Numbered from the stretch's first letter, positions 1 through 10,304 are shown. The stretch is DNA of 14,576 bases from Candidatus Thorarchaeota archaeon (GCA_038893995.1 JAWAQK010000055.1:1-14576); one strand, 5' to 3'. Translations and numbers: made by a program. The notes: generated by a model not told the origin, from the letters alone.

Positions 1-1081
1 TCTGGTATAGCTTCGCATCCCGAAACAACTTCTCGAGAGGGTATTGGTCAATGTAGCCATATCCACCGTGTATCTGGACAGCCTCACTGGCCACCCACAT
101 TGCTGCATCAGTGGCAAAGGCCTTTGCCACACTCGCGGGAATGGTTGAATCCTCCCCTGAATCGGCCACCCATGCTGCTTTCATGTATAGCATCCGGGAA
201 GCCTCAATCTTGATGTACATATCAGCCAGCTTGAACTGGATGACCTGAAAATTCCGTATCTTCTCTCCAAATGCCTCACGGCGATTTACATACTCTCGAG
301 CGTACTCCATAGCAGCTCTAGCAACACCAGTGGCAAAGGCAGCTATAGCAGGCCTGGTGGCAGCGAAAGTCATCATGGCTATCCGAAAGCCCTCTCCCTC
401 CCGACCCAACAGATTCTCCTCTGGGACCTCGACGTCTCTGAGCATCACGGAAGATGTGACTGAGGCCCTGTGACCCATCTTGGCGACGGGACGTCCAGTC
501 TTCAGACCCGGCGAGTCTGCGTCCACAATGAAGGCACAGAGAGTCTTGTGACGCTTGGTGGGGTCAAGACTTGCGAAGACTACAAAAGTGTCAGCGTAGG
601 GAGCGTTCGTGATCCAGAACTTGCTCCCATTGAGTATGTAGTGGTCGCCAGACTTCCTCGCAGTTGTCTTGATGCCCGCTACATCAGAGCCCATTCCAGG
701 TTCAGAGCATGCGAAAGAAATGAACTTCAGGTCGGCAGTCAGAGGTCTGAGGTATTTCTCTTTCTGTTCGTGATTGCCTGCAATCAGAATCGGTTCCATC
801 CCAAGGCTGTTGACGTAGATGCTTGTCGTCATGCCGGCACATCCAGCGGCCAATTCCTCGACGACAATACACTGGTCGAGTAACCCCAGACCCGGCCCGC
901 CGTACTCCTTTGGGATCGCCAGGTTCATTAGCCCATGTTCCCAGCATTTCCGAATGATTGGCAGGGGAAACTCCCCGGTTGTATCGTAGTAGTGTGCATA
1001 CGGGATCATGTACTCCTGCGCGAAGCGCCGGGCCCTGTCACGAAGCCCAATCTGAGACTCTGTCAGTTTTAGATCAAACAC
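1..1081 (-). CDS. Acyl-CoA dehydrogenase (3' end runs off the window; not in ORF track)
   Basis: Manual translation from GTG at 1081 (SD GAGGT 7 nt upstream) is open to base 1: MFDLKLTESQ...FACSEPGMGSDVAG...LNGSKFWITNAP...KMGHRAS...RREAFGEKIRNFQVIQFKLADM...AVQIHGGYGYIDQYPLEKLFRDAKLYQ. All are hallmark ACAD motifs. Confidence 0.96.
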   Translation of the reverse strand, partial: MFDLKLTESQIGLRDRARRFAQEYMIPYAHYYDTTGEFPLPIIRKCWEHGLMNLAIPKEYGGPGLGLLDQCIVVEELAAGCAGMTTSIYVNSLGMEPILIAGNHEQKEKYLRPLTADLKFISFACSEPGMGSDVAGIKTTARKSGDHYILNGSKFWITNAPYADTFVVFASLDPTKRHKTLCAFIVDADSPGLKTGRPVAKMGHRASVTSSVMLRDVEVPEENLLGREGEGFRIAMMTFAATRPAIAAFATGVARAAMEYAREYVNRREAFGEKIRNFQVIQFKLADMYIKIEASRMLYMKAAWVADSGEDSTIPASVAKAFATDAAMWVASEAVQIHGGYGYIDQYPLEKLFRDAKLYQ

Positions 1082-1105
1082 CAAGCATACCTCAATCCCT
1101 CACTG

Positions 1106-1159: not shown

Positions 1160-3436
1160 TCATGACCTTGCTCCTTCTGCCAGAAGATGATTGACTACCT
1201 CGGGCAGGTTCCATTTCAACTCGATATCCAGTGCACCCTTTTCGGGACCAGGACATTTCCTGACACAGGTCCTGCAGGCCACACAAAGCCAGAGGTCTGT
1301 AGTGACCGTACCAAAGCCGGGTTTGTCACTATCGAAACGTACAGTTTCTGACGACTTGGTCACGGCGAGGCCTCGAACGACCCTATAGAGCAGGGCTTTG
1401 TTCGCGGGGAGCTTCTTGATATCATCCTCGGAAATCTCAAAGAATCTGGCAACATCCACCTCTGGCCTCAGGTATATGGCATCTTCGGGACAGGACAATT
1501 CACAGGTCTTGCATCCAATACACCTGCGGTAGTCCCACTTCACTGTTCCAAATCCAATCAGTGGGGCATAACCCATCATGTTGCGGTACTCATCCATGAC
1601 TGTGGGAACATCTATCTCCTTCAGATCGTTCACACTGATCTTCGGTCGTGTAGAGGGAATGTGTGAACGAGTCTGGTAGGCTGCAGCAACGGCCGACTTC
1701 AATGTGGGCTCGATGTCCGAGAGCAGGGCGTCTCCAATCACGACGCCACCAACCCTAGCCTTCGATAGACGGTCACGGGCCTTTGACACGGTTTCAAGAT
1801 CTGTGGCCAACTGGCCCACATTCTCAGGACCCAGACTGACGATGACCTTTCCTATGTTCGAAACCGCTGACATCATGGGGAAGGCCACCTCGCTGACAAG
1901 CTTGATCACAATCTCCGCTTCTGACGGCGTCCTTGGTACGTCATAGATCACGTATCCGTGTGACTCGCCGACAGTAGTGAGTAGCTCGTCCCTCTTCATC
2001 TTGAGTAGGTGTCTGAATACGCGGTCCTGAGGGATCTTGCTCAGTTGGGCCAATTCCTTAGCTGTCGAAGGCCCGTGTTCCCTTATCAAGACCAGAAGAA
2101 GACCGCGCTCAAACTCGTTTGACAGATAAGTGTCCAGTATCTTCTCGTATTGTTCCTTAGTCAGTTTCTGGCCATAGACGTTCGACCCGGATACAAGACT
2201 AGGACCCTTCTCCAGTGCCAGCTTGAGATTGAACTTTGCAAAGGCCTCAAGACCGGCAGATACCAAGAGTCTGAGATCTTCAGCAGATTCAGAAGACATA
2301 GACTTCATTGCGCTCTGCGTCACGAGGTCGGCCAGTTCACGAAGCTTGTTAACACTTGCAGACAGTGAGTTCTCGTCATACTGTCCCAATAACTGCATTC
2401 GCTCACAGATCACCTGAAGTTTCCGGACCATCTGATCCAGTGCCTGCCGCTCGGGCTCTTGTAGGGTCTTCTGAGCACTCTGTAGCTGTGACAACACCCG
2501 TCTTGTAACGAGTGTAGTCGACGGTATAGAGGAAAGGACTCGGCCAAACACCACAGCGCGATCCTCATGCCCAAGTATCTCGACCTCTCCCCGCTGAATC
2601 ATACTCAGGATCTCACGCTGCAATGTCTCGGGCGGAACTCTCAACAGGTTGGACATCTGACGAATAGTACGAGCGCCGATGCGGTCCAGTACAAAGAGCA
2701 TGATTGCTCTCCTGAGCTCGGTCAGCGCATTGTTCCTGACAAGTAGACCGAAGCGTTCGTCTGCGATACGACCCTCTCTTCGACCCCTCTTGATCTGTGC
2801 TGATGTACGCAGCAGAGGGCCATATCGGAGTCTAGCCGCCAGTTTCTGTATTCGTTCGAGTGCTTCCGACGGATCTGCTATGTCAGCTATCTCATGCAAC
2901 TCATCTACGATCCCGACAAGTTCTGTTTCGGAGTCTGCACCAACTCTCTTGGCACTGTTCTCAAGCTCTGACAACGAGCTCTCGATCTGCTGGATGACGC
3001 TCTCAGTTTCGGTCAAGATACGAGAGAGGTCAATCGACATCTCGGACACGGACTGAATGGCCTCGACGTTGTCCTTCTGTTCCAGCTGAAACTTCAGTAG
3101 TTCGATGAGTTTCTGAATGTGTGCGGATTGACTAACGGAAATAGCCTGCTCAAATCCCGCGATCGCCTTGGTCAGGAACTCCCTGTTCCTCAAATCATGT
3201 ACCAGGCCTGACCTCTCAATCGATCTGAGAAATTCCTCGTAGTAGAGATTGGGAAAGGCAACAATTTTGTCGATGAGTGGCTCAAGCGTCTTTCTCAGAG
3301 CCTCGACTTCTTGACTCACCCTAGCCGGAGAAACAGTCGATTCGTCCTTAAGACCACCGAGAAAGAGTATCATATCCATCAGTCTTCGGCGCTTGGGAGG
3401 GATTCCACGGACCTCGGTCTCTGTCCCTGTGATCAT
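1160..3436 (-). CDS. 758-aa helical/coiled-coil protein with two winged-helix-like modules and a C-terminal 2[4Fe-4S] ferredoxin domain
   Basis: CIGCKTCELSCP and CVACRTCVRKCP motifs, each preceded by GFGTV. Two HTH-like segments (GARTIRQMSNLLRVPPETLQREILSM; GPSTAKELAQLSKIPQDRVFRHLLKM). Start moved from 3454 to ATG 3436: GGAGGTG SD upstream and ATGA overlap with the upstream stop. Confidence 0.85.
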   Translation of the reverse strand: MITGTETEVRGIPPKRRRLMDMILFLGGLKDESTVSPARVSQEVEALRKTLEPLIDKIVAFPNLYYEEFLRSIERSGLVHDLRNREFLTKAIAGFEQAISVSQSAHIQKLIELLKFQLEQKDNVEAIQSVSEMSIDLSRILTETESVIQQIESSLSELENSAKRVGADSETELVGIVDELHEIADIADPSEALERIQKLAARLRYGPLLRTSAQIKRGRREGRIADERFGLLVRNNALTELRRAIMLFVLDRIGARTIRQMSNLLRVPPETLQREILSMIQRGEVEILGHEDRAVVFGRVLSSIPSTTLVTRRVLSQLQSAQKTLQEPERQALDQMVRKLQVICERMQLLGQYDENSLSASVNKLRELADLVTQSAMKSMSSESAEDLRLLVSAGLEAFAKFNLKLALEKGPSLVSGSNVYGQKLTKEQYEKILDTYLSNEFERGLLLVLIREHGPSTAKELAQLSKIPQDRVFRHLLKMKRDELLTTVGESHGYVIYDVPRTPSEAEIVIKLVSEVAFPMMSAVSNIGKVIVSLGPENVGQLATDLETVSKARDRLSKARVGGVVIGDALLSDIEPTLKSAVAAAYQTRSHIPSTRPKISVNDLKEIDVPTVMDEYRNMMGYAPLIGFGTVKWDYRRCIGCKTCELSCPEDAIYLRPEVDVARFFEISEDDIKKLPANKALLYRVVRGLAVTKSSETVRFDSDKPGFGTVTTDLWLCVACRTCVRKCPGPEKGALDIELKWNLPEVVNHLLAEGARS

Positions 3437-5589
3437 TGGACCACCTCCATCCACTTTCCAGCGGTCTGCTTGTGAACCGGTGTTGGGCCAAGTTCATGAC
3501 TCCGACGGACCATCTCCTTGACCGCATGGATAAACCGTTCTGGCTCTGCACTGAACATCCGGAACATCTCGACCCTATCTCCGTCCCAGCCAATCGCGTT
3601 GAGAAGGCTTTTCGCTACATCTACCTGTGCCTGGGCAATCTCGTTTCCAGTCCCTCCGTAATGGCACCTATCTTTCTCGCACGCTGCAACCATGACAGTG
3701 CTTGCACCCTGTTCGAAGGCCTTTAGGATGTCAACAAGACTGACCCTGCCGGCACAGGGTACCGGAACGAGCCTCACGTTGTCAGGATACTCCATCCTGC
3801 GGATTCCGACTATGTCAATTGTTGATACAGAACACTCCTCGCAGTAGAAGCAAAGGGTCTTTGGATACTCGGCTCCAGCATTATTAAGCGTCGCCTCAAT
3901 CTGGGCCCAGAGTTGCTCATTTGACAGGAAATTCAACTGGGTCGCTCCGGAGGGACACAGACTCTGGCACACACCACATGCGTGACAATTCATGATATCG
4001 ATAGAAGCACGGGAGACGATCTTATCCTCGTCCGATTCCGCGTCAGATTTTTCAACCATCAGGGGAACGCCCCGGGGACAGTGTTGGGCACAGAGACTAC
4101 ATCCAACACACTCGTCAACATTGAGATTGGCCCCACGTGCCAGATGCTCAATGTGACCACCCTGTAATTCATTATGAATCAACAGTGCTGCGGCGTGTGC
4201 ATCAGTTACGGCCTCGAAGGAGAATTGGGGTCTGGTGATAGCACCCACGGCAACAACGCCACGTCTGCGTGTTTCGTTTCTTCGGAGCTTTCCATACAGC
4301 TCTTGCACATGACCATCCCTGTCAATCGAGAATCCGAGGGTCTGTGATAGTTCTTCCAGTCCCTCGGCGGGAAGTATTGCAGATGACAGGACCACCAGGT
4401 CGGGATGAGCATCGAAGTATCGGTCTAATAGTGAGTCATAGATTCGTACTACGAGTCTATTGTTCTCTCGCCAGACCTGACTGATCCGGCCTCGAATGTA
4501 GTCCACGCCCTTCTCGCGTGACTCCTTGTAGATCATCTCACTCTCAAAGGGGACCCTTATGTCCATGTAGACTATCCGGACCCGTGCTTCGGGTACCCGT
4601 TTCTTGATCTCGAGTGCGTTGTCAATCGCAAATGTGCAACACAGCTTGCTACAGTCGGATTTGTGATCCTGGGACCTGCTGCCTACGCACTGAACCATGA
4701 TGACTTCTCTAGGTTTAGAGCCCGTAGATGGACATACGAGATCTCCTTCTGTCATCATTGTAGCAAGCTCGAGCTGGGTGATCACATCCTCGTCACGGCC
4801 ATACATATACTCGTCCATCATGGTTGGCTTGAACTCCCTGAATCCCGTTGCGAGGACAACAGCTGATGTGGAGAGAGAGCCATCTTCCCCGTTCTCACCG
4901 ACGTAGTGCACCGAAAACGCGCCCATTTCACCCTCAAAGTACTTCACACGGGTTCCCAGCATCACGTTGATTGATTTGGACGCCTGAAGTTGTGACAGCT
5001 TGGGTGACAGTATGTCCCTCCCAGAAAGACCCGTAGGAGCGACCACAGGTAGTTGCAGAAGATGACCTCCCAGCTCACGACCCTTCTCGATGATCGTAAC
5101 GCTGTATCCAAGTCTTGTCAGTGCAAGGGCTGTTTCTATACCAGCAATGCCACCACCAATCACTGTCACATGTCGAGGAACTTCCTTCGTCTTGATAGAG
5201 AGAGGCTCAGACAGTGCACAGGCCGCCACGGTCCCTCGGATCATGTCCAGGGACTTGTCTGTACTGGACGTGATGTCAGGATGCACCCATGCCGAGTGCT
5301 CGCGAATGTTCACATAGTAGACTTGAGTTGAGTCTAGAGACTTGGAGGTGAGATACTGCTCGATCCTGGGTCGAATCTTCTGACTGGTACAGGCGGCAAT
5401 AACAAGTCGTGGATTCTCGGCCACCAGCTCACCGATTCGCGAGAGACCGGTCTCCTGACAAAGTGAATCATGAAGGTCTACACTGCCTGCAATACCATCT
5501 TTTCTGATCGCTGTCCTCAGAGAGTCGAAGTCAAGCCTTAGAGTGTTGCCGCAAGTACACAGGATCACGTTAGGTCTAGCATCTGTCAC
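3433..5589 (-). CDS. hdrA: Heterodisulfide reductase subunit A-like flavoprotein fused to a C-terminal MvhD/FlpD [2Fe-2S] domain (QmoB-like architecture)
   Basis: N-terminal HdrA domain (CTCG, LC, AACT, NIREH-WVH), GGGIAG Rossmann motif, QCVGSR...CSKLCC cluster motif, two CxxCxxCxxxCP motifs, then an MvhD signature (FYCEEC...EYPDNVRLVPVPCAGRV...ILKAFEQGA...AACEKDRCHY). GTG start overlaps the upstream stop (GTGA). Confidence 0.93.
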   Translation of the reverse strand: MTDARPNVILCTCGNTLRLDFDSLRTAIRKDGIAGSVDLHDSLCQETGLSRIGELVAENPRLVIAACTSQKIRPRIEQYLTSKSLDSTQVYYVNIREHSAWVHPDITSSTDKSLDMIRGTVAACALSEPLSIKTKEVPRHVTVIGGGIAGIETALALTRLGYSVTIIEKGRELGGHLLQLPVVAPTGLSGRDILSPKLSQLQASKSINVMLGTRVKYFEGEMGAFSVHYVGENGEDGSLSTSAVVLATGFREFKPTMMDEYMYGRDEDVITQLELATMMTEGDLVCPSTGSKPREVIMVQCVGSRSQDHKSDCSKLCCTFAIDNALEIKKRVPEARVRIVYMDIRVPFESEMIYKESREKGVDYIRGRISQVWRENNRLVVRIYDSLLDRYFDAHPDLVVLSSAILPAEGLEELSQTLGFSIDRDGHVQELYGKLRRNETRRRGVVAVGAITRPQFSFEAVTDAHAAALLIHNELQGGHIEHLARGANLNVDECVGCSLCAQHCPRGVPLMVEKSDAESDEDKIVSRASIDIMNCHACGVCQSLCPSGATQLNFLSNEQLWAQIEATLNNAGAEYPKTLCFYCEECSVSTIDIVGIRRMEYPDNVRLVPVPCAGRVSLVDILKAFEQGASTVMVAACEKDRCHYGGTGNEIAQAQVDVAKSLLNAIGWDGDRVEMFRMFSAEPERFIHAVKEMVRRSHELGPTPVHKQTAGKWMEVVQ

Positions 5590-6848
5590 TGAGAACTACC
5601 ACCTCTGCTCTGAAGAATCCTGCTTACAACCGCCCTCGCCTGGGTCACACTCTCAGGAACTTCGGCAGGGCCGAGCGCGGTTCCGCAGGCGTAGATGCGA
5701 TCACCAACGACAAACTCATCGAGTTGAGTCGCATCCTTTCGGGAAACGAATCCGCTTGCCGATCTGAGGCCCAGCATGTTCACTAGTTCGGATGTCCCCT
5801 CTGATGGCTCGAGCGCTGATGACAGGACCAAGAGGTCTGTATGTATTTTCATGAACTTGTTGAGTAGCGAGTCGTAGACCACAACCAGCACACCGCCACC
5901 CTCCGCCGGAGAAACAGAATGAACCCGACCTCGGACAAAGTCGGCCCCGTCTAGCCTCGCCTGCAGGTAGTATCGCTCGTGTCGTTCGTATGTACGAATG
6001 TCCATATACACTACAGTGACTCTGGAGCACCCTCGCTCTGCCAGAGCTATGTGGGCATGCTTGAGTGCGAAGACACAGCATATCTTGGAACAGTAGGGGT
6101 AGTATCGTTCATCCCTACTACCTACACACTGCACCATCACCATCTTCTGGACTGGTGAACCATCAGATGGTCTTCGCAGGGCCCCTCCAGTAGGACCGTT
6201 GGGATCTAGAAGACGCGCAAGCTCGAGCTGTGTCACAACATCGGGAATCCGGCCATATCCGTACTCATCCATGTTCTTAGGCTGCATCTCGTGATAGCCT
6301 GTTGCAATGACTATGTCCGACACGGTGACCGTGTCTTCCCGTGGTTTCGCAGACAGGTCGATGGCCCTCGTGGGACACTCCTTCTCAGCCTCTCGTGCAG
6401 CCCCATCATTCAGCTCTGGACGATAGACGACTGACTGGGGTTGACACTGCGGGTAAGGCAGGACAAATGCTCTAGACTTCTGAATACAGAGACCACACAT
6501 GGTACATTTCTTGGGATCAACATAGATGGGACCAGACCGCAGTCTCACCTCGAACTCGTCACGCTTCCTGCTGACCGACACGACTACTGTGTCTGTCCTC
6601 AGATCTATGTTGGGTTGATCAACCATGGCGCTCCTATAGAAACACTTTCTGATTCCTGGTCTCCATCGGTTGCCCTCGAAGCAGTAGAAACAGTCGTCTG
6701 TGGGGAAGGCCTTGTAGAGATCTAGTGCGTTGCCTCCCGCCGAAGGCTGCCTGTCAATCAGGATAGTCTTGACACCGGAGTCTGCAAGTTCAACAGCGGC
6801 GGTCAGTCCAGCCACACCTGCTCCAATAATGAGCACGGGGTTGGTCAC
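5586..6848 (-). CDS. hdrA: Short HdrA-like flavoprotein (FAD/thioredoxin-reductase fold with reduced inserted ferredoxin; QmoA-like size)
   Basis: GAGVAG motif, FPTDDCFYC (cf. HdrA FPTLDCxxC), EYGYGRIPDVVTQLE, QCVGSRDE...CSKICC, YMDIRT, ACGTALGP..VPESVTQA. Lacks the HdrA N-terminal domain and C-terminal ferredoxin. Confidence 0.92.
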   Translation of the reverse strand: MTNPVLIIGAGVAGLTAAVELADSGVKTILIDRQPSAGGNALDLYKAFPTDDCFYCFEGNRWRPGIRKCFYRSAMVDQPNIDLRTDTVVVSVSRKRDEFEVRLRSGPIYVDPKKCTMCGLCIQKSRAFVLPYPQCQPQSVVYRPELNDGAAREAEKECPTRAIDLSAKPREDTVTVSDIVIATGYHEMQPKNMDEYGYGRIPDVVTQLELARLLDPNGPTGGALRRPSDGSPVQKMVMVQCVGSRDERYYPYCSKICCVFALKHAHIALAERGCSRVTVVYMDIRTYERHERYYLQARLDGADFVRGRVHSVSPAEGGGVLVVVYDSLLNKFMKIHTDLLVLSSALEPSEGTSELVNMLGLRSASGFVSRKDATQLDEFVVGDRIYACGTALGPAEVPESVTQARAVVSRILQSRGGSSQ

Positions 6849-6860
6849 TTCTCATCCCTC

Positions 6861-7727
6861 TCATCCGGTAAGATGCTCAAGGATCGGTACAGCGGAGACT
6901 CTGTTCATACCGAGACCGACCTGGTTCTCGTCAAGACCCATGGCCAGCCCCAGAATCTGAGGATAGAACAGGACTGGCAGGTTGTACTCCTCACCGTAGC
7001 TTTGTTTGAGCCCGAGCTGCTGAAGGTCCAACTGGTTGCCACATGCAGGACAGACCACTGTTGCAAACTGTGCGCCGTATTCCTTCATGGATCTTATCTT
7101 GTCTCGTGCGAGCCTGATTGCAAGGGGCTCATTCACGGGCAACACTGTGGCTCCACAGCACTGCTTCCACAACGGGTAGTCCACAACCCGAGCCCCGGTG
7201 ACCTCGACCAGTTCGCGAAGTATCTCAGGCCTGAACTCGGTAACATCCTGGGGGCGAAGTAAGTGGCAACCAAAGTGGATCGCAATGCCCACACCATCGA
7301 GGGGTCGTGCTATCTTCTTCCGTATCTCATCAAGACCAACATCCGTATAGATCGCCTCGATTATGTGACGGACCCGTATCTTGCCCTCCACCCTCAGGCC
7401 TTCACCTGCAAGCTCCTCGTTGACAGATCTCATGTCTGACTCACTGTGCTTCAGATGGTGGAGAACATCCTTCAAAGAACCAAAGCAACCATTGCAGGGA
7501 GTCACAATGTCTTTGCCGTTCTTCTCTGCGATGGCCAGTGTCCTTGCATTGACTCTCAACCACCCATTGTAGTCCAGTGCCCGCAGATTTGGGCTTCCGC
7601 AACAGGCCACACCTTCCATGTACTCCAGATCAACGCCGAGAATGCGGGCCACTGCCAACATGGCCGCCTCGTAATTGGGATAGTTGGCTGGGACACTGCA
7701 ACCCATATACAGATTATACGTGGGCAT
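6861..7727 (-). CDS. hdrB: Heterodisulfide reductase subunit B (two CCG domains)
   Basis: YMGC...CCG...TPCNGC and HFGCHLLRP...CCGA...VCPAC..QLD motifs, C-terminal PVLFYPQILGLAMG. ATG directly abuts the hdrC stop, with a GGAGGTG SD. Confidence 0.96.
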   Translation of the reverse strand: MPTYNLYMGCSVPANYPNYEAAMLAVARILGVDLEYMEGVACCGSPNLRALDYNGWLRVNARTLAIAEKNGKDIVTPCNGCFGSLKDVLHHLKHSESDMRSVNEELAGEGLRVEGKIRVRHIIEAIYTDVGLDEIRKKIARPLDGVGIAIHFGCHLLRPQDVTEFRPEILRELVEVTGARVVDYPLWKQCCGATVLPVNEPLAIRLARDKIRSMKEYGAQFATVVCPACGNQLDLQQLGLKQSYGEEYNLPVLFYPQILGLAMGLDENQVGLGMNRVSAVPILEHLTG

Positions 7728-8270
7728 CTAAACACCTCCCCTTGAGATCCGCCCTGCCCTAGACTGTATGAGAATTCTCTTCACATGCTCAACCGAGAGA
7801 CCGGGCACAGAGGGCTCAAGCCCAAGATCTTCTCTCTCCCAGTCTGCAGTCACTGTATACAGCTGACCCTTCTCGACAAGCTCTCGTGCAAGCTGTGCAA
7901 CATTCTCAGGTATGAACCCGGCCTCTGCAGCGAGGTTCTTGCAATCGAAGAGTATGTCTGTGATACGAACTTTCTGAGGGCATCTCTCCTGGCATTGGAA
8001 GCAGGTCAGACACTCCCAGATCTCTCTTGAAGAGAGTACCTCGTTTCTCATTCCAAGTATTATCATTCGGATAAGCTGATGAGGCTTGTAGAGCCACTGG
8101 TTGGCAATGGGACAGGCTGCTGTGCACGTCGAGCATGCAAAACATGCACTCAGTTCTTCGCCGTTAGGCATGTTACGTATTTGATCACGGAAATCGGGAT
8201 CCAACTGCGACATGTCAATCGGTTCAACCAACGTCTGTGGAGGCGTCGGTTTCTCGGCGGTCTCGGTCAT
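7728..8270 (-). CDS. hdrC: Heterodisulfide reductase subunit C (2x[4Fe-4S])
   Basis: CFACSTCTAACP and IWECLTCFQCQERCP motifs, PHQLIRMIILG; 180 aa, directly upstream of hdrB. Confidence 0.95.
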   Translation of the reverse strand: MTETAEKPTPPQTLVEPIDMSQLDPDFRDQIRNMPNGEELSACFACSTCTAACPIANQWLYKPHQLIRMIILGMRNEVLSSREIWECLTCFQCQERCPQKVRITDILFDCKNLAAEAGFIPENVAQLARELVEKGQLYTVTADWEREDLGLEPSVPGLSVEHVKRILIQSRAGRISRGGV

Positions 8271-8327: not shown

Positions 8328-8343
8328 ATATTAAAAGCTTGCA
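8328..8343 (-). promoter_or_regulatory. Putative archaeal BRE/TATA promoter of the hdr operon
   Basis: Minus strand TGCAAGC-TTTTAATAT about 58 nt upstream of the hdrC ATG, in a GC-rich background. Confidence 0.55.
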
Positions 8344-8488
8344 GAATGAGCTGACTTCGGTACTGCGGCATGTCGGAGTCTTGATTCAGAGAAGATGGCT
8401 GTTGACTAGCTGGAACAGTCATTGGAGCCCTGTGCAAGGGTCTTCAGAACTTCAGAGAGACCAGAGTGCCCGAGTTGCAAGGCGTCAC

Positions 8489-8496
8489 TTTTAAAG
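8489..8496 (+). promoter_or_regulatory. Putative TATA box of the Lsm/SmAP3 gene
   Basis: TTTTAAAG about 47 nt upstream of GTG 8543; SD GAAGGTGA at 8530-8537. Confidence 0.5.
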
Positions 8497-8542
8497 CGGA
8501 TGCGACGCCAACGGACTATAATCCAAGTTGAAGGTGAGACTT

Positions 8543-8980
8543 GTGTCAGACGCAACGGCCATGAGGGCCTTTAACAGAGAGCTTGCATCCGTCGTAGGTA
8601 GCACGGTCGTGGTCAGCACAACTGCGGGAAAGACGTATACAGGTACGGTAAAGGGGATAGATCAGAGCACTCTGAGCATTGTCCTTTCCGATGTCACCTG
8701 TCTTGAGGACGACTCCAAGTTCCCAAGGATATTCATATACGGGCATAGCATTGTGTCGTTCTCTCTCTCTGAGAAGGAAGTGAGTCTAGAAGGGCTTGCA
8801 AAAGAACTTGAGAAGACATTTCCGCCAGGAGGAGTCCGCTACTTCCCAGATGTGCAGGCCATTGTGGTCATGAACAAGATACGAATAACGCCTCAGGGAA
8901 TTGACGGCTCAGGTCCGCTCTATGAACGTGTTGCTGAGATAGCCAAGAAGTGGATGGAGGAGCACGGCATCACATTTTGA
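8543..8980 (+). CDS. Lsm/Sm-like RNA-binding protein with C-terminal extension (SmAP3 type, Lsm + Lsm_C)
   Basis: Sm1-like FNRELASVVGSTVVVSTTAGKTYTGTVKGID..LSIVLSD, Sm2-like IFIYGHSIVSF, and C-domain LAKELEKTFP...GIDGSGPLYERV typical of ~145-aa SmAP3. Start set at GTG 8543 by SD spacing (ORF track uses TTG 8528). Confidence 0.88.
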   Translation: MSDATAMRAFNRELASVVGSTVVVSTTAGKTYTGTVKGIDQSTLSIVLSDVTCLEDDSKFPRIFIYGHSIVSFSLSEKEVSLEGLAKELEKTFPPGGVRYFPDVQAIVVMNKIRITPQGIDGSGPLYERVAEIAKKWMEEHGITF

Positions 8981-9038: not shown

Positions 9039-10304
9039 TCACAATAGGCGTTTGAGGCCCAGTTCGTCGAGGCTGTATTTCTCAGCCTTAGAGCGTGCAG
9101 TGCTACGACTAGGCACCAACCTGTCAACGGGTTTCAATCGGTCTTCCCAAGAGCCCCCGGTACTGACAGGGAACTTTCCGACAGGTCGAACATCAACCGA
9201 CCGTCTTGTTTCGACTTGACCTATGGGACCTGAGAGCAGACCCAGCTCTGCCAGCCGTTTCTGACCTATCGTTGAAACTACGGTATCTTCCTTTACTCTC
9301 GGGAGCAGCTGTGGACTCCTGACGCCTGTCAGAATCAGCATGACCCGGATGGTACCAGTCAGTCGCGGATCGATTCGTGCACCCCAGATCACCTGTGCAT
9401 CGGAGCTCAGTCGTTTCGAGATCAGTTCCCCAATCTGATTCGCCTCTGACAGTGACATATCAGGACCACCTGTGATGTGAATCAGCGAACCGGTTGCGCC
9501 TCCCCACTCTACTTCTAACAACGGGCTGTTCAGTGCGTTGTCTATGGCCTCTTGGACTCGGTTCGTCCCAGTGGCTTCTCCAAGCCCAACCAGTGCCACG
9601 CCGCCATTGCAGATGATTGACCTTACATCTGCATAGTCCAGATTTATGAGACTGGGCATAGTGATGGTCTCGGTAATACCTTTCACCATGGCGGCGAGGA
9701 CCTCATCCGCAACCCCAAAGGCTTCTTCAAGAGGGAGGTCCGGTACCAGTTCGAGAAGTTTCTGGTTATCAATGACCACGACCGTGTCCGCATTCTCCTG
9801 TAGCTTCGCGAGACCTACTTTTGCCTTGTCGATGCGTGCCCTCTCTAGTGCGAAGGGCATCGTGACAACTCCGACGACAATCGCATCATTACGTTTTGCA
9901 ATCTCTGCAACCACCGGGGCACTGCCTGTTCCAGTGCCACCACCCATACCGCATGCAATGAAGACAAGGTCAGCATCACGCAGTAGCTCAGCAATCTGGG
10001 GTGCTGACTCCTCGGCTGCAGCCTGTCCCACATGAGGATATCCCCCTGCACCCAGTCCTCGCGTAATTGTTTCTCCGATGAGGAGTTTTCGGTGAGCTGT
10101 CGTTACTGCCAGATGTTGCCGATCTGTGTTTATTGCGATGCACTCGGCTCCTTGGACACCTATTGTCATCAGCCGCTTGATTGTATTGTTTCCCGCACCT
10201 CCGCATCCAACAACGACGATTCGGGCCTGACCTAGATCGCGTCCCGATGTTGTACCTTGCTCGACTCTCTCATGCTCCCTGGCAGCGTCAATAAATGTCT
10301 TCAA
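9039..10304 (-). CDS. ftsZ: Cell division protein FtsZ (archaeal FtsZ2-type) with long C-terminal tail
   Basis: [15 protein letters not shown] (FtsZ2-like TDxQHL), GLGAGG, tubulin signature GGGTGTG, T7 loop [11 protein letters not shown] start with a GAGGAGG SD inside the upstream gene. Confidence 0.98.

Follow-up and report, generated by a model that had tools for sequence, protein, structure and literature searches.

Gene X lies on the minus strand at positions 1160-3436 of a 14,576-nucleotide (nt) stretch of DNA, hereafter the window, which is one contig of a ~2.3-Mb, 91%-complete Asgard genome. Close homologs are annotated as Thorarchaeota. The gene specifies 758 amino acids (aa) plus a stop codon and belongs to a tightly packed minus-strand operon with the order hdrC, hdrB, hdrA1, hdrA2::mvhD, X and a gene for an acyl-CoA dehydrogenase (ACAD), in which the hdr genes code for proteins of the heterodisulfide reductase (Hdr) type. 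X is most likely a conserved, uncharacterised iron-sulfur subunit of this Hdr-type enzyme in Thor- and Helarchaeota.

The ATG start codon of X (3436-3434) overlaps the TGA stop codon of hdrA2::mvhD (3435-3433) within the tetranucleotide ATGA (3433-3436), and a ribosome-binding site (RBS), GGAGGTG, precedes it at 3448-3442. An initial annotation of this DNA had described X as translationally coupled to the gene carrying the MvhD domain, and the overlap bears this out. The preceding gene, hdrA2::mvhD (3433-5589, minus strand), codes for 718 aa with an HdrA-like FAD core, a C-terminal 2x[4Fe-4S] ferredoxin, and an MvhD/FlpD domain at aa 579-701. No MvhD/FlpD domain was found within X itself, and the MvhD domain forms the C terminus of the preceding gene product.

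Over its full length, X matches no family in Pfam, NCBIfam, or PDB, where only generic ferredoxin and winged helix-turn-helix (wHTH) matches are returned. Homology to the canonical subunits (HdrA/B/C, MvhA/G/D) was likewise not found in these three databases, and the sequence of X matches only generic ferredoxins in PDB, over aa 629-684. In the literature, parts of which were accessible, no paper was found that treats winged helices in connection with Asgard Hdr or that describes the X family. Thus, the earlier impression that the architecture is not that of a described family still holds. Fused forms of X with a greater length (1328-3790 aa) were looked for and not found, which is weak evidence.

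Distribution and Gene Order

More than 200 full-length relatives of X (~754 aa, 45-53% identity) are present, under the name '4Fe-4S dicluster domain-containing protein', in metagenome-assembled genomes (MAGs) labelled Thor-, Loki/Prometh-, Hod-, and Sif-. HMMER, run exhaustively over 1.84 billion representatives, returned further relatives that span the full length at 21-27% identity. Cluster names were checked for P0131, P0133, P0135, P0138, and P0141, and these derive from Helarchaeota and a single Lokiarchaeota MAG. Of the 301 Asgard genomes sampled, 75 of the 76 from the GTDB family of the window contain X, and two other families have it at full length; the rest of the sample gave no match at E <= 1e-20.

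The order hdrC-hdrB-hdrA1-hdrA2::mvhD-X-ACAD is seen in 57 Thor-type loci from distinct species, wherever the contig extends, and the ACAD gene follows X in all 56 Thor-type loci whose contig is long enough. In Hel- and Loki-type loci the order is hdrA1-hdrA2::mvhD-X-hdrC-hdrB, and the ACAD gene is absent after X.

An Interrupted Ferredoxin

The protein ends with two CxxCxxCxxxCP motifs, as initially reported. The first of these (C639-x2-C-x2-C-x3-CP650, aa 639-650) is encoded at 1487-1522 and the second (C718-x2-C-x2-C-x3-CP729, aa 718-729) at 1250-1285, both on the minus strand, as are all features of X described below. They belong to a 2x[4Fe-4S] ferredoxin body that extends from the GFG sequence at aa 628-630 to the C terminus (aa 628-758; 1163-1555). 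Pfam recognizes this body as Fer4_7 with 36.5 bits (cut-off 27), and Fer4_6, Fer4_8, Fer4_10, Fer4, Fer4_9, and Fer4_2 likewise score above their cut-offs. Between the cluster motifs is a helix-strand-GFG element (aa 676-709; 1310-1411) in which L676, P677, A691, G707, and G709 are invariant. In an alignment of 29 family sequences, no conserved cysteines were found outside aa 639-728.

The initial annotation correctly recognized a C-terminal dicluster ferredoxin but missed that an N-terminal helix and the C-terminal domain together make up one ferredoxin. HMMER also returned stand-alone ferredoxins of ~160 aa (sFd) that match X aa 625-750. Their N termini carry a KRxxLxxLIxxLAxKxP helix that resembles aa 13-29 of X (PKRRRLMDMILFLGGLK; 3350-3400), where K15 and R16 are invariant. 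The two halves of sFd proteins are tandem duplicates of a unit consisting of a KR-helix, a strand, GFG, and CxxCxxCxxxCP (hhalign E 5.9e-32), and the N-terminal helix of X is homologous to its own aa 680-696. When X(1-36 + 612-758) is aligned with eleven sFd proteins, it reads as one continuous ferredoxin at ~30% identity. Because of the shared KR-helix and this continuous alignment with eleven ~160-aa ferredoxins, X is, as judged from sequence comparison, an sFd whose first unit has been cut after its helix by an insert of ~590 residues (~30-623). The helix at aa 13-29 is then the first helix of the split ferredoxin unit. All eight cluster cysteines are invariant across the Thor, Hel, and sFd relatives.

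The sFd genes also occupy the position of X. The arrangement hdrA1-hdrA2::mvhD-sFd, with start-stop overlap, occurs in Asgard families that lack X (loci L083, L084, and L085), and MvhD::sFd fusion proteins of 265-266 aa exist. A further locus (L092) has the order hdrA1-hdrA2-[MvhD::sFd]-[120-aa W2-type wHTH, hhalign E 1e-23]-hdrC-hdrB, where W2 is the second winged helix of X described below. X itself has both the tandem units and the placement directly after hdrA2::mvhD that characterize the sFd family. The constancy of the X slot at 21-27% identity, the presence of sFd in the same slot, and the MvhD fusions support, at the level of genes and their order, a role for X as an Hdr subunit.

The L092 locus (L092:1749-17025) continues with two radical-SAM genes, a lipoate-protein ligase gene, and genes for an FAD oxidoreductase and a GcvH-like protein. 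These genes are reminiscent of those for lipoate-binding-protein maturation in sulfur-oxidising sHdr systems. By this analogy, there is a hint that the substrate of the L092 complex may be a lipoyl-protein disulfide.

Tandem Winged Helices Within the Insertion

The insertion contains a long-helix region (aa 37-204; 2825-3328), which is the fastest-evolving part of the protein (13% identity between the Thor and Hel clades). No fold match was found for aa 37-204, and aa 30-225 gave no usable match in the ESM Atlas. Next is a first module (aa 205-306; 2519-2824) made of a basic pre-helix (aa 205-225) and a winged helix (WH), called W1. Helical hairpin 1 (aa 307-379; 2300-2518) separates this from a second module (aa 383-507; 1916-2290), which consists of a helix, a GSNVYGQKL segment, and a second winged helix, W2. 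Helical hairpin 2 follows (aa 508-592; 1661-1915) and is weakly similar to the first (aa 316-381 vs 526-591, hhalign E 2e-4, probability 45%). A linker (aa 593-627; 1556-1660) forms the end of the insertion; it is modeled with low confidence yet well conserved within the Thor clade (IPSTRPK..DVP..DEY..MGYAPL). The AlphaFold2 model of full-length X (pLDDT 78.5, pTM 0.39) has an entirely helical N-terminal third and a disordered linker at aa 593-627.

The initial annotation had reported a gapless repeat at an offset of 201 aa with 11 identities in 50 positions. The offset is sound: with profiles from the 29-sequence family alignment, aa 225-306 match aa 426-507 over 81 columns (hhalign probability 98.6%, E 8e-16), and a profile of the second module finds the first module in the genome at E 2.9e-8. 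The count is not, since the stated windows, compared as single sequences, share 10/50 residues, a level that shuffling the protein surpasses (11-14/50). Raw identity is therefore not above chance, and the significance of the repeat rests on profiles and structure. The nucleotide ranges first given for the repeats were also slightly too wide, as aa 246-295 correspond to 2552-2701 and aa 447-496 to 1949-2098.

The two repeats have closely parallel secondary structures in the AlphaFold2 model, with helices at 226-253, 258-265, and 269-281 and strands at 285-291 and 294-299 in W1, and helices at 427-454, 459-466, and 470-482 and strands at 487-492 and 495-499 in W2. A second AlphaFold2 model (aa 200-600, pLDDT 79.8) likewise gives both repeats three helices (H1-H2-H3) and a β-hairpin wing. 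When compared by VIA-align with 48,161 PDB representatives, W1 (model residues 38-102) and W2 (238-303) superpose over 60-66 residues with Z 10-13 and a root-mean-square deviation (rmsd) of 0.9-2.2 Å on winged-helix domains of Zalpha, PH1932, MarR, ArsR/SmtB, TFE-alpha, and ESCRT-II. The W2-type profile matches HlyU (E 7e-7), PH1932 (7e-6), and NmtR (5e-5) in sequence; the Pfam matches to MarR_2 and TrmB are under their cut-offs, and that to Rrf2 is marginal (E 0.031). Because of the structural matches at Z 10-13 and the profile matches to ArsR-family structures, both repeats are, by profile and by model, winged helices. The helix-turn-helix and β-wing pattern that had been read from the sequence is thus reproduced, as are the long helical segments that flank both repeats.

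The second module has a particular kinship. Five HMMER matches to X aa ~333-492 (P0164, P0183, P0185, P0187, and P0190; E 1e-7 to 9e-4) are proteins in which an MvhD/FlpD domain (PF02662) is followed by a C-terminal extension with a GNVYGEKL segment, and one is in a cluster with a Bathyarchaeota-named member. Structure searches of the ESM Atlas returned FlpD+HTH clusters of 234-263 aa from Thermodesulfobacteriota and Thermoplasmatota (TM 0.46-0.49) as well as stand-alone wHTH copies of 117-119 aa (TM 0.8). Stand-alone wHTH proteins homologous to the second module are ~112-120 aa in length. The suspicion that the GSNVYGQKL segment recalls the wHTH extension of MvhD homologs was therefore well placed, and profile matches and predicted structures confirm that the WH module of X is homologous to the extension at the C terminus of long MvhD proteins.

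An extension of this kind, as judged by architecture, has been visualized in BamF of the class II benzoyl-CoA reductase from Geobacter metallireducens, an MvhD adaptor that is more than 100 residues longer than usual (bioRxiv 10.64898/2026.04.10.717634). This cryo-electron microscopy preprint reports that the winged helix-turn-helix of BamF contacts BamI of the NADH/ferredoxin input module, and that the HdrBC-like BamD passes high-potential electrons to an electron-transferring flavoprotein, or ETF (bioRxiv 10.64898/2026.04.10.717634).

The ESM Atlas search also gave a weak alignment (TM 0.2) of an 824-aa Promethearchaeota cluster with Pyr_redox and FrhB_FdhB_N domains to X aa 149-621. This protein may represent another redox module on a similar scaffold, in Lokiarchaeia, as far as the predicted structures indicate.

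Predicted Docking on HdrA2 and MvhD

In a complex prediction with HdrA2(478-718) and X(385-758), three controls gave an ipSAE of 0.38 at best and the pair itself 0.87. That ipSAE mark is attained by 58 of 80 solved complexes and by 2 of 110 mismatched pairs, a calibration that is rough here because custom alignments were used. The complex runs share at least 82% of their contacts, and the partner pLDDT is 63-64.

On the X side, the confident interface comprises aa 640-647 of the first cluster motif and aa 676-708 of the second helix-strand-GFG element, and this element makes up the core of the predicted contact. On the HdrA2 side it comprises the ferredoxin cluster motifs (493-503 and 544-548), MvhD helices 617-626 and 651-668, and the C-terminal tail, such that the cluster motifs of X and HdrA2 face one another. 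Interface residues that are invariant in the family are L676, P677, A691, G707, and G709 of X and S140, D143, L186, I189, G190, and W191 of HdrA2, as numbered in chain 1 of the model. The prediction supports binding of the X ferredoxin to the C-terminal ferredoxin and MvhD domain of HdrA2.

From the long-MvhD fusions, W2 might have been expected to be the part of X that touches MvhD. This candidate was set aside because the model named ferredoxin-domain residues only, and the absence of W2 residues from the confident contacts is no evidence that they do not make contact.

A Flavoprotein Module in the Same Position

Six Thorarchaeota species (L055-L060) carry in the same operon slot a variant of X with 972-998 aa (e.g., L055:10001-12877; P0128, 972 aa). 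The variant consists of X(12-119), a GltD/NfnB-like module (Fer4_20 at 163-242, Pyr_redox_2 at 257-549), and X(419-754), so residues ~120-418 of X, comprising the coiled coil, W1, and hairpin 1, have been swapped for an NAD(P)H flavoprotein module. In the genome sample, reading frames of 972-998 aa are present in 6 genomes and match X(2-145) and X(417-748) only, and no full-length X was found there. The inserted module is 52% identical to a GltD-like protein that heads a second hdr operon in the genome of the window. The insertion site of X can thus accommodate an electron-input module.

This second operon, on contig C47 (L091:7883-16062, minus strand), encodes a 918-aa HdrA-like::GltD-like protein, a 133-aa open reading frame (ORF), hdrC, hdrB, hdrA1, hdrA2, mvhD, and a wHTH protein. 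Its hdrA2 is without MvhD and its mvhD gene is stand-alone. The 78-aa wHTH protein (W2-type profile E 8e-8) begins with an ATG that overlaps the mvhD stop codon.

The Remaining Operon and Window

The gene for HdrA1 (5586-6848, minus strand; 420 aa) encodes an HdrA core only and overlaps hdrA2 by 4 nt at 5586-5589. HdrA is thus split between two overlapping genes, one a core-only 420-aa copy and the other a 718-aa copy with an N-terminal domain, the C-terminal 2x[4Fe-4S] ferredoxin, and MvhD. The hdrA1/hdrA2 gene pairing is conserved in all related loci, and this suggests that HdrA1 and HdrA2 may form an obligate heterodimer, with therefore a single MvhD and a single X per pair. Further upstream are hdrB (6861-7727, minus strand), which encodes two CCG domains, and hdrC (7728-8270, minus strand). 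HdrA2 is the top NCBIfam model for both HdrA genes but under its cut-off, and every Hdr protein of the operon scores under the curated methanogen equivalog cut-offs. The enzyme is therefore referred to as Hdr-like. Thorarchaeota are not methanogens.

The ACAD gene (2-1084, minus strand), which is truncated by the contig end, follows X after a gap of 75 nt, starts with TTG, and is preceded by a GAGGT RBS of its own. Neither an oligo-T tract nor a TATA element is present in this gap, and given that the ACAD gene has its own RBS it is probably co-transcribed with X, to judge from these sequence features. Within the gap is a 9-nt inverted repeat (TGCCTGCGG / CCGCAGACA; 1104-1112 with 1138-1146) with a 25-nt loop. 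The top-scoring model for the ACAD is the acryloyl-CoA reductase AcrC, under cut-off. An ORF of ~337-340 aa without a Pfam match is conserved after the ACAD gene in two related loci (L003:13622-14644 and L008:4852-5865), and the contig of the window stops short of this position.

Upstream of the operon, a TATA-like sequence (TTTTAATAT) lies at 8328-8336, ~60 nt from hdrC. The shared intergenic region holds a second A/T box (TTTAAAAG, minus-strand reading; 8487-8494), ~35 nt from the point at which a divergently transcribed gene (8528-8980) for an Lsm protein with Lsm and Lsm_C domains begins. Beyond it are genes on the minus strand for FtsZ (9039-10304), ribosomal proteins L2, L23, L4, and L3 (10604-13432), and a putative RNA methyltransferase (PF02598; 13527-14378). 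DNA of the window was found in hot-spring metagenome runs from one study, and none of the read runs listed as carrying window DNA is an RNA data set.

A Proposed Role for X

We consider it probable that X is an electron-wire and docking iron-sulfur subunit of an Asgard Hdr-type complex for flavin-based electron bifurcation (or confurcation) rather than a regulator. The complex would consist of HdrA1, HdrA2::MvhD, HdrB, HdrC, and X. The split ferredoxin of X is predicted to dock on HdrA2/MvhD, where its clusters could serve as an electron relay that links MvhD/HdrA2 with a partner. The insertion, with its long helices and two winged helices each accompanied by a hairpin, would be a docking arm that holds an electron donor or acceptor near the X clusters, much as, by analogy of architecture, the BamF winged helix holds BamI. 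The WH modules of X are more likely to dock protein partners than DNA. Because a GltD/NfnB-like module half-replaces the arm in six Thorarchaeota species, one mid-potential partner of the X complex may well be NAD(P)H, to which the variant points.

A more speculative extension concerns the high-potential end. HdrBC might serve the co-located ACAD via EtfAB, as ETF is served by BamD, and the net reaction would then resemble that of Bcd-Etf, or its reverse, on an Hdr chassis. The genome encodes EtfAB (contig C32) and five ACADs, four of which are outside this operon. These genes rule out the simpler proposal of an 'ETF-less ACAD' for which Hdr/X would be the sole electron acceptor.

Several observations weigh against the proposed role or parts of it. 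The score of the predicted complex is the model's own confidence, and it may in part reflect likeness, because solved Mvh-Hdr and Fdh-Hdr structures place MvhD beside iron-sulfur partners. The complex model also gave W2 no confident placement. The adjacency of the ACAD gene is absent from Hel-type loci, and with four further ACADs and EtfAB encoded elsewhere in the genome the ACAD link may be regulatory or coincidental. Lastly, Thor-clade sequences keep a basic recognition helix in W2 (+3 to +4), and nucleic-acid binding is therefore possible.

Alternative Explanations

The initial annotation had left a choice between a redox-sensing DNA-binding subunit and a scaffold that positions the complex, and of the two the scaffold fits best. 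In its pure form, the ferredoxin would anchor X on HdrA2/MvhD, the insertion would only oligomerise or tether Hdr complexes, and the clusters would be dead-end or structural. We regard this purely architectural role as unlikely, even though long helices and hairpins prevail at aa 37-220, 306-401, and 506-592 of the AlphaFold2 model and these helical parts evolve fastest (12-13% identity between clades). X is also the least conserved gene of the operon, at ~48% identity compared with 66-78% for its neighbors. There is a weak Foldseek likeness to tandem-WH scaffolds such as RPC62/Rpc82 (E 1.6e-3), the proteasome lid, and UFL1-DDRGK1. These proteins and the PFOR ferredoxin domains were not taken as homologs, with a best E of 1.6e-3 and TM 0.08-0.19 against PDB. 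The full model had no Foldseek match in PDB at E <= 1e-3, and the VIA-align matches to ESCRT-II and TFIIIC are single WH domains or have an rmsd >15 Å. Clusters without a function in electron transfer are difficult to reconcile, however, with cysteines that are invariant even in sFd relatives, or with an NAD(P)H flavoprotein variant that implies electron flow through the insertion site. Moreover, MvhD-associated WH modules recur beside electron-input modules.

Regulation of transcription is less likely still. X would in this case act as a trigger enzyme. Contact with Hdr/MvhD would set the redox state of its clusters, and this in turn would govern DNA binding by W2 (and W1), with feedback on transcription. 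Such a function could be imagined from the W2-type profile, which matches ArsR/SmtB, MarR, and PH1932-type regulators (HlyU E 7e-7), from the superposition of both modules on DNA-binding WH domains (Z 10-13), from the basic W2 recognition helix in the Thor clade, and from the basic segment before W1 (+4 to +5). But the W2 helix does not retain this charge in Hel-clade sequences (-2 to +4), and in W1 the corresponding helix is neutral or hydrophobic, with a net charge of -2 to +1. The wings are acidic in every clade (among the sequences listed, 0 to -4 in W1 and -1 to -3 in W2), and the mean net charge is negative for both modules (about -0.6 for W1 and -3.0 for W2 in 20 Thor-clade sequences; -1.4 and -2.9 in the Hel clade). 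No cysteine is conserved beyond the ferredoxin, and a flavoprotein module can replace the first WH block.

The setting of the modules also speaks against a regulator. The translational coupling of X inside an enzyme operon implies stoichiometric synthesis, and the same type of WH module is fused to MvhD and contacts a protein in BamF. Neither the region upstream of hdrC nor the gap that precedes the ACAD gene showed a clear palindromic operator. The TATA-like box of hdrC is overlapped by a 17-nt palindrome of 71% complementarity, which is unpersuasive, as is the stem at 1104-1146. Given these observations, the DNA-binding subunit first envisaged finds little favor. A version in which X, docked on HdrA2/MvhD, reports redox load via its [4Fe-4S] clusters while W2, through its basic helix, engages nucleic acid depending on redox state is more doubtful again.

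Finally, ferredoxins are often diffusible, but it is very improbable that X is a co-transcribed soluble ferredoxin-like carrier or unrelated factor not stably bound to Hdr, given its fixed slot directly after mvhD with start-stop overlap across homologs of 21-27% identity, the existence of MvhD::sFd fusions, and a complex prediction that passes its controls. The physical tie to the Hdr complex that was originally suggested is instead upheld by the conserved operon position, the MvhD fusions of both module types, and the predicted complex.

Implications

Anaerobic energy conservation depends centrally on Hdr-type flavin-based electron bifurcation, and syntrophy models of eukaryogenesis build on the way in which Asgard archaea handle reducing equivalents. 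As an electron-wire and docking subunit, X would be a near-universal, lineage-specific extra component of the Thorarchaeial Hdr enzyme (75/76 family genomes). It would also reveal a building plan in which a small ferredoxin on MvhD/HdrA2 has been opened to carry MvhD-type WH docking modules or, in certain species, an NAD(P)H flavoprotein module. MvhD, sFd, and wHTH form a triad that turns up in varied fusion states in the X operon, in the C47 operon, and in L092. One half of it, MvhD with a WH extension, is also found outside Asgard archaea in the Bathyarchaeota long MvhD and in the Thermodesulfobacteriota and Thermoplasmatota clusters. New here are the split-ferredoxin origin of X, the sFd slot, the MvhD::sFd fusions, the GltD-type variant, the second operon, and the complex prediction.

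If the link to ACAD and ETF is true, acyl-CoA oxidation or reduction would be coupled to ferredoxin and NAD(P)H by Hdr-based, not Etf-based, bifurcation. Should X instead prove to be a trigger subunit, a core energy enzyme in the closest archaeal relatives of eukaryotes would directly regulate gene expression.

Comparison With Known Systems

Transcription factors of the ArsR/SmtB, MarR, and SurR types share with the WH cores of X a fold and a detectable sequence relationship. X differs in that it is without their dimerisation and metal-sensing elements, its wings are acidic, the W1 helix is non-basic, and the winged helices reside inside a 758-aa protein encoded in an enzyme operon. Conserved redox cysteines or cluster ligands in or next to the wHTH, as in Rrf2/IscR and SurR-like regulators, were not found in X.

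In gene arrangement, the operon resembles that for HdrA2B2C2 of Methanosarcina acetivorans, where an HdrA::MvhD fusion gene is also followed by a ferredoxin gene. The hdrA2::mvhD gene of that organism is co-operonic with a putative polyferredoxin, which is suspected to be an electron source for the complex and whose role is unresolved (PMC5296606). The Asgard operon differs in that HdrA is provided by two complementary genes and the ferredoxin carries WH modules.

The sFd proteins are like X in their KR-helix, GFG strands, two cluster motifs, and operon slot, as exemplified by MHA1238318.1 from Odinarchaeia (mis-named 'ATP-binding protein'). They differ from X in that the ~590-residue insertion is absent.

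BamF and the long MvhD proteins have in common with X a helix, a GNVYGEKL-like segment, an ArsR-like winged helix, and an MvhD domain alongside in an HdrA-type complex. X has two copies of the module, both inserted in a ferredoxin and neither fused to MvhD, and lacks an MvhD domain and a [2Fe-2S] site. The likeness of BamF to X is judged by architecture, whereas kinship in sequence is seen with the metagenomic long MvhD proteins.

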